Assembly: GCA_964016885.1 (NCBI GenBank)
Contig: OZ024740.1
Location: forward strand, 62,868,001-62,932,000
From: Eledone cirrhosa
Taxonomy: Eukaryota
Length of the DNA: 64,000 nt
Direction of reading: 5' to 3'
The position numbers and the translations under genes are program-made. Shown here piece after piece: positions 41 to 56,208 of this stretch. Every line of letters starts with the position of its first letter. Position 1 is the stretch's first letter. The notes under the pieces are model-generated. The model worked only from the letters and a program-made list of their open reading frames with translations. It did no database searches and was not told the origin of the DNA.

Positions 41-1309
41 ATTGTTATACTTTGGGAGGGTCATGTTACCTATAAGAAACACACGCACCAGTTGCTTTAC
101 TTCAATTTATTATAATAAATTTATAATAAATTTATAAATTTATAAATTTCTGGTTGGTTGGTTGGTTCCACAACCAGATAGTTGTTTATATATTGTCATA
201 GTTCTTTCGTCACAGACTCTGTGACCTCTTCAGTGACTGGGGATTCCTTTCTTTGTTTCTGTGCTTCTCCTTTGTTCTGTCCTACGCCATTTTGTTTCTG
301 TGTGTGTGTTGTGTGCTCAGTCTGCGCATGCACCACATCCGGGTGTCTGTGTGTGTTTATGTTCATTTATTTATTTGTTTATTTACATGTTACTGGTTGG
401 TTGTTTGTTCTATGTGTGTGTGTGTTTTCATTTTGTCCTTAATTGTAAGTTGTGATGTTGCTGTTCCACTCATATTTTCTATTTAATTTTGGTTGTAATT
501 CTTTTGGTTGTAATTCTTTTGTAATTCTTTTATGTTTATTGCCTCTGTAATTTGTCTAAACATTGCGTCTTTTCTGTATGTAGATTCTATTTTTATTTCT
601 ATGCTCTCTAATTTACCCTTGTGTTCTATTTTAGCATGTTGGTAGAGTACAGATGATTCTTTACTATCTTGAAGGTCTCGCCAGTGTTCATTTATCCGTT
701 CCCCTACACTACGAGCTGTCTCACCTATGTACACTATATTTTTGTCTCTACATTGTCCTTCAGTACATCTTATGCTATACACTACATTTCTAGTTTTACA
801 GTTAATATGGGAGCTTATTTTACAGGTTATACATTTCTTATCTATACATGAGGGTCTTTGAAAAGGGTATGTCTTGCTAATAAGTGTTTTTACGGAGGTA
901 CCTGGCCTTTCTACTATCTTAATATTGAGTTTATGTTTATTTAGGGCCCTTCTAAATTTGTAAGCTAATTTACCTCTAGGGGTTGTATCGATGAACTTTA
1001 TTGCTATCATACCATTAGTTTATTCTATTAGCCTTGTTCCTAGTTTTTTCTAATCTATTCCAAAATTTGCTCCTATACAAGGGACAGGTCCCATTTATGT
1101 CATTATTTACCATTTTTTCCCATTTGGTTCTGGCTCCTCTATACACTCTGATTTTATCTCTCTGATTGTATCCAGAGAACTGCATACTGTGGATGAAGTA
1201 TTGTATGTGTCTCTCTAGTTCTTCGGGGTTGCACATGCGGGACACGTTTCTCATCACCCGTACCAAATCCGCAATCAGTATGTTGATTTTGGTATGGTCC
1301 GAAACGGCT
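41..1309 (-). pseudogene. Inverted 3' fragment of the PLE (RT thumb, GIY-YIG endonuclease, pseudo-LTR)
   Basis: Reverse complement of about 2411-3668. Has a small deletion near 997 and a short tandem duplication at about 486-530. ORFs 483-1010 and 1015-1437 carry the same peptides as the plus-strand copies. Confidence 0.93.
195..237 (-). ncRNA. Minimal type I hammerhead ribozyme in PLE pseudo-LTR (family 1)
   Basis: Minus strand reads GUCA CUGAAGA G GUCACAG-AGU-CUGUGAC GAAA G AA C UA^UGAC: stem I 4 bp, stem II 7 bp, minimal stem III. Confidence 0.8.
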
Positions 1310-1316
1310 GAATATA

Positions 1317-53500: not shown

Positions 53501-54799
53501 ACTTACATGTTTGTTACTAATGATTAGAAGATGATTACTGATTTGAAGCCATGATATTTGAAGACATTATATTTTCTTTGAAAGAATTTAATTAATTTCA
53601 AAACCTAATTATAAAACTATTAATTTTCATATTCGAACCCATCGGCGTATCGCGGTCTGAGAGGAAATACTCTGATAGTATGAGTTTTTCTTTATAACAA
53701 AAGACAGGAGTTTTATGTAGGACTTTATTTGGCATGGTACAAATGTATCTTGCTATGTTACTTCCCTCCTCATTCTGGTGAAGATAGCATAGAATACCAA
53801 AAACTATTAAATTAACAAAATATCCCAACTAATGAGCGAAATGTGAGGTAATTCAAAATATGATTGGAAACAATAGAATCGTGAGAACTGAATGCTTAAA
53901 ATTCACGAAGAAAGTGGTAAGATCGAATCTATGGCGAGACAAGAGAGCACTGATCCATTTCATATCAATTTCAAGCTATCATTATGACAGCTCAACATTG
54001 CAATGCCACTAGTAAATTGGCAACAACAAAACCCCCCAGAAAGTTAGGTGAAATATCATATTTATAAATGTATTTATGGATGCAGCATGGTCAAATAATT
54101 CAGAAAAAACTCGGTTCGCAATCATAAGGTCTTAGGAATACACTTGTATGTTGATTTCACGAAAGACTGCTCCATTGATCTAACAACTGGATAATCATTG
54201 TCGAAACTGACGGAGATCCATTCAATAAATGTATTTAGACATAAATTGATCATATAGATACATATATCATGAAGATAAAAATAAACCTAAATACAACTGC
54301 ATGTATTTAAGTGGTACGAAACTCTCAGGAGAGTTGGACAGCAGAAGGTTTTCAGAGAAACCCCCCTCAAGCGAGTATTTCGGCCGGTAACTTCTTACAT
54401 TCTAAAGGGGCCGGGCCGCATTGATGTTATGGGCGTCGTTTTGCTGGCAAACCTACATTTGGCGCAAAATCAATTTTTAACATTCACATGACCTCTACCG
54501 ACCAATCAAAATTGTTTTGACCACAAGAATTTTTTCATACATCTGGAGCCACTTTTTTTTTACATAAAACAGGTAGAATTTCCAAAACTAATCAGATTAG
54601 AGCAAACATCACGGGCGCTCTATCTCAAAATTATTTTTGAAAAGCATTAGAAATGCGCAACCGGTAAAACTTAAAACCAAAACTGAATAGTAACCAATAC
54701 TATTACTAATTTTTACTTATTCCTAATTAAACTATTTTTCACTGGGAACAATTTGTCAGCATTTTCTTTTCCTTTTACCAATATATATATATACATATA

Positions 54800-56208
54800 T
54801 ATATATACAATTAGAGAAAGTTGGTTGATAGAAAATCTGTCGACTTTTACATAACAGTTGTCAAGCATTCAACGCATTATGTCAATTCGGACTTTTATTA
54901 TAATAATAAACAAGTAAGACGGTTACCTTTGTCCATCCCTATTCATGATATTATACGTATTTCGAAGACATGGCTTTTGTATAACATCCGCCAACGTGTT
55001 CTCTTCAGATAAAATCTACATGAGATGCAAATATCCGCTGATATGCAACCGGTCACACGAGTTATTTACTTCGGCGATTGGCCAGCATATGCCTAAAAGA
55101 CTTCAGTAGTAGATCATGTATGAGTGGGAGATATATTTTACAGTTGGCGTTGCTGTTTTTGAACTGGCTAGAGTATCGGTTTACCGGATTGGTCAACTGG
55201 ATCAAAAGGAAGCATGTATGGACTGTTAGTCAAAGTTTTCTTTTTATGTCAGATTTAATTCACTTAGATACTATTTCAAATAGAGGCGGAAGTTATAATG
55301 TAACTAAATATAAAATAATTTTGAATTACTTATTTCATAGTCTATTTAACTTTATTTATCTTTTAACTAAATACCCTATGAAATGTCTTGCTGATTTTGT
55401 GCAGACAAGAACTAAAAATTTCCGAGCGTTTATAATGTTATGTCTAAGAATCTCTGTTACACTCTTTAGATATAGATGCATTCGTGTATGGAAAACCGTG
55501 AGAGAATTTTTGCCAAGAAAGGGAGTAATCAACATCTATATTTTTAAGTGACCAAATCAGTTCTGATAGGCCCGTGCTACATCTTTATCTTCTCTTTTAA
55601 ATGATGGCGATGCTTGTACCACCTTACCTTAAATCTAGTGGAAGTCGCACCAATATAACTATAAGATTTACTATTCGTTTTTACTTTGCATTCATAAACT
55701 ATATTATTATCTAGACAGTTATTATTTAATGGATAAATATTACGATTTTTACAGTTGCAATTATTTCTGTTACCATTCGACCCCCACCTCCCACCGCTGT
55801 GTCCGTGTGTCCGTAGGTCTATCTCATCTATGTTAATGGTGTTATTTCTGTTATCGAAATTGCTGTTTATTCTATCAGTGTGTCTATGTTTGCTATTGTG
55901 AGTTATCTCCCTATGTTTAATTCCCAGATTTCTATTGTTAATTTTCGCTATATTCTGGGCTATGCTTTTGGTAGTCGAGTAGGAAAGTTTAATTGCGTGT
56001 CGGTTAAAGATTTGACTGTATTTATGTGATCTAGGAAAACACCTATCTAATGCGTTAAAGAAAAGCCGCGTTAACTGCATGAAGTCTTTTTAGGCATATA
56101 CTGGCCAGTCGCCGAAGTAAATGACTCGTGTAACCGGTTGCATATCAACGGATATTTGCATCTCCTGTGGATTTTATCTGAGGAGAACACGTTAGCAGAT
56201 GTTATACA
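54800..56208 (-). mobile_element. Truncated Hydra-like PLE with inverted pseudo-LTR piece at its 5' junction
   Basis: ORF 55577-56080 (CNCKNR..PL...CL..NIVY..YIGATSTRFKVRWYKH). 54978-55105 is repeated inverted at 56080-56208. Left boundary is approximate. Confidence 0.8.
54949..55011 (-). ncRNA. Minimal type I hammerhead (family 7) in the pseudo-LTR of a Hydra-like PLE
   Basis: UAU CUGAAGA GAACACGUUGGC...GCCAUGUCUUC GAAA UACGUA UA^AUA: palindromic UACGUA, short stem I. Confidence 0.62.

Follow-up and report, generated by a model that had tools for sequence, protein, structure and literature searches.

The described systems closest to the elements considered here are the metazoan non-long-terminal-repeat (non-LTR) retrozymes (Cervera and de la Pena 2020, PMC7229834; Li, Clavereau, Pollet 2026, 10.64898/2026.07.22.740005), the minimal hammerheads in the pseudo-LTRs of Penelope-like elements (PLEs; Cervera and de la Pena 2014, PMC4209133), the Hydra and Naiad clades of PLEs (Craig et al. 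2021, PMC8557442) and the Poseidon element PAc of Anolis (Frangieh et al. 2024, PMC11167929). Retrozymes are non-coding units of low GC content that each carry a single type I hammerhead, occur as dimers and partial multimers and coexist with PLEs, by which their mobilisation has been proposed; circularisation of the units has been shown for coral, mussel and axolotl (PMC7229834). The PLE hammerheads have a short palindromic stem III and an extra base at the foot of stem II, and they are found in many families per genome, most as truncated PLEs, and as inverted pairs 100-700 bp apart (PMC4209133). These retrozyme and PLE features recur in a 64,000-nucleotide stretch of the genome of the cephalopod Eledone cirrhosa (GenBank assembly GCA_964016885.1, contig OZ024740.1, positions 62,868,001 to 62,932,000, forward strand), the whole of which is referred to below as the window. 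Comparison of its repeats makes it probable that the window consists of insertions nested in TA repeats, that each hammerhead lies near a fixed 3' end of a coding PLE or of a short closed non-coding unit, and that the non-coding families B, H and I, and probably E1 and E2, were copied by a Hydra-clade reverse transcriptase (RT) by way of a small bulged hairpin.

A preliminary description of the window had listed at least 14 hammerhead motifs in about seven unrelated families. A scan with a type I descriptor (CUGANGA, stem II, GAAA, stem III, UH and stem I, one bulge or mismatch tolerated, score >=20) returned 15 complete hammerheads, which include 13 of the 14 listed positions and two beyond that list, at 9290(-) and 34137(-). 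The core CUGANGA plus GAAA, the UH cleavage site and three stems with stem I open are present in the 15 motifs. The layout was also found at the fourteenth position, 31455, where the motif is truncated, as had been stated, two bases past the cleavage triplet and hence is not among the complete matches. The density exceeds that of the controls: 100 local dinucleotide shuffles of the window gave a mean of 0.05 hammerheads (maximum 1), and the reversed and the complemented window gave 0 each. The seven unrelated families become ten (A, B, C, D, E1, E2, F, G, H and I) with relationships among them, since B and H agree at 70-72% over 230 nt and E1 and E2 at 75-77%, and a hairpin is common to several. 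The palindromic stem III that had been described holds for C, D, E1, F and G and does not hold for A, whose weak stem III has a non-palindromic 4-nt loop, nor for B, H, I and E2, which have longer stems III. In the window copy of G stem I has decayed, and a remnant at 53007-53065(+) (motif at 53019), with CCGAUGA in place of CUGAUGA, was assigned to no family.

Covariation was read for the C/D/G type, of whose 22 clusters 17 were aligned; their 17 subfamily representatives had been gathered by primary sequence with no pairing filter. Double-sided changes occur at all nine stem II pairs, and 95% of cells are paired. None of 500 shuffles paired as highly, in a test that is inflated by relatedness, and slid controls reached 35-52%. 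Single double-sided changes were also seen between E1 and E2 in stem I and between the two window copies of F in stem II. The comparison with Rfam that had been suggested for judging novelty gave, by cmscan of the window, no hammerhead family at E<=1 and only microsatellite-driven microRNA matches. The hammerhead motifs of the window are genuine as sequence and structure motifs, and represent predicted self-cutting RNAs.

The motifs are common throughout the genome. Forty evenly spaced 10-kb stretches from 11 contigs (400 kb in total of a 3.0-Gb assembly) gave 20 hammerhead matches and 0 in the reversed control. This corresponds to 50 hammerheads per Mb (bootstrap 28-78), about one-fifth of the density in the window, and extrapolates to roughly 80,000-230,000 motifs in the assembly (roughly 150,000). 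For the giant squid 235 hammerheads have been reported from standard Rfam annotation (PMC6962438), and the present estimate is far above the 4,000-9,000 of coelacanth and Xenopus, which were obtained with another descriptor (PMC4209133). A further set of 310 loci (1.4 Mb, biased to hammerhead neighbourhoods) holds 305 distinct hammerheads in 38 sequence clusters. The closest proteins with a name are those of Octopus vulgaris, which points to an octopod host.

Six of the listed motifs and both added ones lie in non-coding units that close on themselves. Family B (27006-27530(+)) measures about 520 nt per unit and is flanked on both sides by (TA)n; its hammerhead at 27188-27269 has a 9-bp stem I and a long stem III. 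Family H (33845-34395(-)) is a young 535-nt unit present here as slightly more than one unit, with a long-stem-III hammerhead at 34018-34145 and a hairpin at 34344-34369. The unit of family I (8710-9687(-)) is about 430-460 nt long, with its hammerhead at 9212-9297; a repeat resembling a short interspersed element (SINE) has severed its tail piece at 8710-8796, and an inverted arm at 9453-9687 carries a hairpin at 9528-9549 on the + strand. E1 (31773-32415(-)) has a unit of about 765 nt and a hammerhead at 31895-32019 with a 98-nt stem II region, and E2 (32436-33835(-)) is a tandem dimer of a 701-nt unit with hammerheads at 32607-32733 and 33308-33434. Family F, with a 322-nt unit, is present as 1.4 units at 36147-36586(+) (hammerhead 36386-36427) and as a second copy at 42047-42413(-) (hammerhead 42243-42284).

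Family searches of the genome compared the best 25-30 loci out of 230-2909 first-look candidates per family, with 2162 candidates for H, 2909 for F, 2230 for E1, 1517 for I and 361 for B. Followed upstream, the sequence leads back to the 3' end of the unit itself (wrap-round) in 12 of 25 B loci, 4 of 30 E1 loci, 20 of 30 F loci, 9 of 25 I loci and 13 of 25 H loci (two pairs of which overlap), and the closed status of E2 draws on the window dimer and on few other copies. Two complete hammerheads in tandem were found for E2 in the window, for H (L263-L266) and for F (L045), and for none of B, E1 and I in 25-30 loci each. The longest methionine-initiated open reading frame (ORF) in seven natural non-coding copies has 20-90 amino acids, and PLE coding matches that flank the units belong to separate insertions. 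Copies of H, E1 and F are 95-99% identical. Judged by sequence, B, E1, E2, F, H and I are thus retrozyme-like non-coding closed units with one type I hammerhead each. They differ from the described retrozymes in reaching 520-770 nt, in being mostly dispersed at 1-1.5 units and in being known from DNA alone (PMC7229834; 10.64898/2026.07.22.740005).

One subtype of family I lies within a larger repeat of identical layout (loci L184 and L185 and six more matches), and several of these copies are near contig starts (C1, C9 and C13) and are perhaps subtelomeric duplications. A telomere-associated, Athena-like nature of family I was considered and not retained, a telomere-like 12-mer being present in only 1 of 25 loci. 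E1 ends inside an insertion at 31513-31773 that breaks the hammerhead of family D and whose start resembles what we take to be non-autonomous Helitrons. The reading of E as a Helitron-borne tandem was rejected, since E forms a separate dispersed family with a 3' end of its own.

Five further motifs of the list, those of C, D and G, are 5'-truncated 3' ends of Hydra-clade PLEs. A further element of this clade, HyW (27557-30370(-)), is 5'-truncated and frameshifted; the stem II region of its hammerhead, at 27620-27749, measures about 105 nt, and the CUGA of the core has been lost in this copy. It carries all Hydra diagnostics, namely a C-terminal GIY-YIG endonuclease, a CxCx5C linker, the RWR and DKT motifs and no finger insertion, as judged from relative L292 with 62 amino acids between motif A and MGS, so that the Hydra-like PLE of the preliminary description is borne out. 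The HyW family is very large and young, with 25,114 first-look RT candidates, many identical peptides and frames of up to 800 amino acids. Family C is present as two head-to-head 3' stubs (30596-30968, both strands) with hammerheads at 30626-30696(-) and 30772-30842(+) and a one-sided tail that carries a hairpin at 30887-30911(+). Family D likewise forms two head-to-head stubs (31093-31512, both strands), with a hammerhead at 31138-31204(-) and a + copy at 31455-31512 interrupted by another insertion. Family G (54810-56208(-)) retains a GIY-YIG remnant at 55577-56089 and a hammerhead at 54949-55011, while its inverted arm at 56080-56208(+) is broken inside stem II of its own hammerhead, at 56178. 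A same-strand GIY-YIG remnant lies upstream of D within 1.5 kb in 5 of 25 loci (and in 6 of 6 long copies when extended), of G in 8 of 25 loci and of C in 2 of 4 extended loci. These are endonuclease and thumb-region remnants only, 29-50% identical to HyW, and in the best 25-30 loci per family none of the three wraps round to its own 3' end. A further Hydra-type GIY-YIG remnant at 40297-40647(+) has no detected hammerhead downstream.

HyW, C, D and G are, on these sequence characters, Hydra-clade 3' ends. They resemble the described clade in (TA)n insertion, a hammerhead in the pseudo-LTR and inverted truncated arms, HyW also in domains, motifs and linker, and differ in longer 3' untranslated regions (UTRs; 0.3-1.3 kb), a stem II of up to about 105 nt and about 25,000 RT candidates (PMC8557442). 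The earlier statement that no description of such families in cephalopods was known can be kept for the retrozymes, of which no cephalopod report was found, but not for the PLEs, as a Hydra element with a hammerhead from Octopus bimaculoides, Hydra-1_Obim, is among those in the supplement (PMC8557442).

The insertion signature is the same in coding and non-coding families. All have fixed 3' ends, ragged 5' ends and frequent inverted arms, and 10 of 13 element 3' ends, placed from cross-locus homology and partly by eye, lie within 10 nt of (TA)5+, which covers 3.4% of the window, in line with the association with (TA)n noted before. The 3' ends fall into two clusters, usually 50-135 nt apart, in A, B, C, D, F, G, H, I and HyW, where the table of ends could be read only partly for B (the reference began too far upstream) and for HyW (the reference entered TA-rich sequence). 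The fixed ends are 50-330 nt 3' of the cleavage site, and copies run through that site: 5' ends do not pile up there (6 of 162, with 4.6 expected). One E1 copy longer than one unit (L011) has its 5' end exactly at the predicted cleavage site. In the anole PLE two internal RT start sites, downstream of the hammerhead, delimit the tail in vitro, and uncut RNA is the main template (PMC11167929). The PLE signature and this precedent together make it likely that a PLE enzyme produced the non-coding units, with either an uncut multimer or a circle as template; the two look alike in this evidence. For H, divergence within loci is 1.65% and between loci 2.88%, and in a four-segment, two-armed insertion (L265) seven private variants are common to both arms, compared with 0-1 in nine other loci. 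This is suggestive, and only suggestive, of a common template for the H units of one insertion.

Which PLE may have done this is indicated by the hairpin. It has the form RCUC, stem, loop of 2-65 nt, stem, a two-base 3' bulge (UW) and GAGY. In B, C, D, G, H, I and HyW only a few bases separate the proximal end from the hairpin, which lies 3' of it. It is found in 9 of 11 families in sense and in 0 of 11 in antisense orientation, with a shuffled rate of <=0.0035. The pairs were read family by family, as MAFFT left the hairpin stems unaligned; depending on the family the closing pair is either A-U or G-C, and the inner stem varies throughout. Among the 305 hammerhead matches the hairpin accompanies 74 in sense and 0 in antisense orientation, in 12 of 38 clusters, four of which were outside the design of the pattern. 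The 400-kb sample contains 22 such hairpins, compared with 2-7 in shuffles and 10 in the reversal. The same hairpin was recognised by eye in the supplement consensi of Hydra-2_Amil from a coral and Hydra-1_Ajap and Hydra-2_Ajap from a sea cucumber, and with one mismatch in Hydra-1_Crog from a copepod, that is in four of six published Hydra consensi; the passages available on the clade make no mention of a bulged twin hairpin (PMC8557442). A second hairpin lies 4-6 nt beyond the distal end in 9 of 11 read-through matches of H, 10 of 14 of I, 6 of 16 of B, 9 of 11 of HyW and 1 of 4 of C, where the denominators include copies that simply end there; for D it occurs in 1 of 5, further off than this distance. 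No second hairpin was found in the matches of E1, E2, F and G, and copies of G mostly stop at the distal end. The hairpin thus keeps its pairing through different base pairs and keeps its distance to both ends. Since it is common to coding Hydra ends and non-coding ends, the Hydra-clade RT is likely to be the mobiliser and the hairpin its start signal. The description of both PLE lineages as suppliers of RT and GIY-YIG endonuclease has to be narrowed in this respect, as only the Hydra clade is implicated as donor. The description of the ribozyme RNAs as non-coding and PLE-supplied fits the six motifs in units that look PLE-mobilised, whereas the other eight of the 14 are ends of coding PLEs.

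In view of the above, the following sequence of events can be considered. The GIY-YIG endonuclease would nick a (TA)n target, and the PLE protein would bind the hairpin and begin reverse transcription just 5' of it. Each side of the break would have its own start site, set by one of the two hairpins, which would give a one-sided tail together with head-to-head arms. Reverse transcription would read through the hammerhead and end early, on a template that could be an uncut multimer or a religated circle. Hammerhead cleavage would trim multimeric transcripts to units able to circularise, possibly as monomers in the long-stem-III forms B, H and I, and as dimers or with protein in the palindromic forms (PMC4209133, PMC11167929). 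The mobiliser of F would be some PLE. Two start sites bounding a tail downstream of the hammerhead would be shared with PAc, in which, however, the tail has 30-40 nt rather than 50-135 nt; the PLE-A sites described below lie, as in PAc, within the start of the ORF, whereas those of the Hydra group fall in the 5' UTR, with a bulged hairpin immediately after each (PMC11167929). In tandem copies of HyW the tail runs on into the 5' UTR and ORF.

Several observations weigh against copying by a Hydra-clade RT through the hairpin. In E1 and E2 there is a single fixed 3' end, and the hairpin lies about 105 nt before it and has no twin. Families F and A have no hairpin, and it is absent in 26 of the 38 clusters, mostly single copies. 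Hydra-1_Obim and Hydra-1_Amil show no clear hairpin by eye in their supplement consensi (PMC8557442). The pattern was written after six tails had been seen, and its span was widened for E and HyW. Beyond the hairpin none of the non-coding units showed nucleotide homology to the five PLE ends with which they were compared. The private variants common within an insertion of H are clear in only 1 of 10 loci, which is little for a circular template. In minimum-energy folds most single motifs do not form the hammerhead, and for the green anole PLE cleavage is dispensable for insertion in vitro (PMC11167929).

The second PLE lineage, PLE-A, accounts for the three remaining motifs of the list, which are its pseudo-LTRs. 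An inverted 5'-truncated arm (39-1311(-), hammerhead 195-237) ends in (TA)n and is followed by a 5'-truncated copy (1310-3728(+)) with an open frame at 1287-3269 for RT and C-terminal GIY-YIG and a hammerhead at 3471-3513 in its pseudo-LTR, and by a full-length frameshifted copy (3647-7794(+); frames 3607-5088, 4866-6926 and 6913-7293; hammerhead 7539-7581), whose 3' end lies within the start of the next ORF and is followed by (TA)n. This trio is the PLE arrangement drawn in PMC8557442. PLE-A has RT and then GIY-YIG within one frame, the endonuclease last, and is therefore no Naiad, contrary to the preliminary description; its hammerhead is canonical and its motif is DKS instead of DKA. Naiads have an N-terminal endonuclease and are without a canonical hammerhead (PMC8557442). 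Among homologues with both RT motifs the endonuclease motif is C-terminal in 58 of 77 and N-terminal in 0. The C-x4-CxxC linker and C..C..H..H of the frame match the CX2-5CxxC linker and CCHH of canonical C-terminal endonuclease-bearing (EN+) clades. However, its RT has 128 amino acids between motifs A and B, and 77 of 114 homologues have 124-132; this is about twice the canonical spacing of about 60, Naiads having about 80 (Fig. S1, PMC8557442), so that PLE-A also departs from Neptune, Nematis and Poseidon, which have no RT finger insertion. Its likeness to Naiads is the (TA)n target and a longer-than-canonical stretch between motifs A and B (PMC8557442). Sister families at 36-70% identity occur in 5 of the 40 random 10-kb samples. 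A comparison with a protein atlas returned only generic RT and GIY-YIG clusters, and short PLE-A motifs are absent from the text of the PMC8557442 supplement, in which the long sequence runs are incomplete. PLE-A may lie outside every clade definition compared, being set apart by motifs and spacing and not by a tree, and is perhaps an unnamed PLE clade.

Alternative explanations differ in which step they address. The first concerns the cleavage step only and is compatible with the rest: the hammerheads would have ceased to cut, and PLE RNA would retain them for protein binding or for structure. In vitro cleavage by minimal PLE hammerheads is poor (PMC4209133), eight of nine Xenopus retrozyme dimers stayed uncleaved (10.64898/2026.07.22.740005), and the lack of a 5'-end pile-up at the cleavage site points the same way. 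We regard this as unlikely, because 38 clusters whose stems are unrelated all retain the catalytic core and UH triplet, monomers of B and H do fold stems I-III (z -2.2 and -2.7), and the anole PLE hammerhead does cleave with protein (PMC11167929).

A second alternative is that all motifs are truncated or internally deleted autonomous PLEs, the closed units being dead and passively re-copied and the hairpin inherited baggage. This description holds for A, C, D and G; the origin of retrozymes from PLE ends has been proposed by Li et al. (10.64898/2026.07.22.740005), E and HyW are alike in their long stem II and stem III palindrome, and a rare coding parent could exist, as only the best 25-30 of hundreds to thousands of copies were compared. 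As a general account it is nevertheless quite improbable, since the units form large young families of their own, of which H, E1 and F are nearly uniform, share nothing with PLE ends beyond the hairpin, and have kept the pairing and position of that hairpin while its bases changed.

Copying by a Hydra-clade RT has further been weighed against movement of the non-coding units by another enzyme, an A-type PLE or a non-LTR retrotransposon, and against their spread as DNA satellites. A-type PLEs are abundant, end in (TA)n and have two fixed ends, F is devoid of the Hydra hairpin, and a non-LTR element presumably of the restriction-endonuclease type is present in the window. The tail of A, on the other hand, lies inside the ORF and has no hairpin, and the copies follow the PLE pattern (PMC8557442), being dispersed and mostly shorter than two units, lacking poly(A), and having inverted arms and two fixed ends, so that such an origin is very unlikely. 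A link of F to PLE-A through a 6-mer common to their ends was considered and found too weak. An origin of the motifs by chance matching in AT-rich, repeat-rich DNA, in favour of which the silence of Rfam could be cited, is scarcely credible given the shuffled and reversed controls of window and genome sample and the covariation.

A wider proposal is advanced tentatively and with somewhat less than even confidence. The hairpin, conserved from coral and sea cucumber to cephalopod, would be the start signal of the telomerase-like Hydra RT, present twice per unit and setting both start sites, and several non-coding ribozyme circles would have kept or captured it and so depend on one enzyme. The genome would then harbour about 150,000 hammerheads in at least 40 lineages unseen by Rfam, alongside a PLE lineage, as yet unnamed, whose endonuclease is C-terminal and whose finger insertion is of telomerase length.

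The remainder of the window contains other mobile elements. A near-intact non-LTR retrotransposon at 22164-26110(+) has RT, a zinc-binding domain and one frameshift, and a 98% identical 3' fragment of it lies at 49635-50505(-); its C-terminal region looks like what we take to be a restriction-type endonuclease. An element at 45938-47530 with 215-bp terminal inverted repeats and broken transposase frames presumably belongs with Tc1/mariner. In a 392-bp palindrome at 19543-19934 (90% arm identity) no hammerhead was detected. The SINE-like family of about 200 bp occupies about 25 places in the window (e.g. 8815-9070, 16643-16829 and 40156-40357); the AT-rich proximal end of elements of families I and G is a frequent insertion point.

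Earlier publications already cover the hammerheads of PLEs, the Hydra clade including its hammerhead-bearing octopus element, and retrozymes together with the proposal that these arose from PLEs. In the literature we found no report of cephalopod retrozymes, of the hairpin, of a hairpin common to a PLE clade and retrozymes, or of a C-terminal-endonuclease clade with a long insertion; Repbase and Dfam were outside this comparison. Several families here have long stems II or III, unlike the minimal PLE hammerheads (PMC4209133), and the census indicates that standard Rfam annotation can overlook such motifs wholesale. The enzyme that copies retrozymes and its recognition have been proposed from co-occurrence and pseudo-LTR similarity, with no clade or RNA element pinned in the parts of these sources at hand (PMC7229834; 10.64898/2026.07.22.740005). 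The units described here differ in showing PLE ends copy by copy and a cis element common with one named PLE clade. The presence of one hairpin in coding Hydra elements as well as in non-coding units, at a constant distance from the two insertion ends, provides a candidate donor, a template and a signal that can be mutated. A start signal of 20-30 nt for internal priming by a telomerase-like enzyme would be useful for RNA-templated insertion tools and, if this reading of the hairpin is true, it would explain the PLE tail for the Hydra clade.

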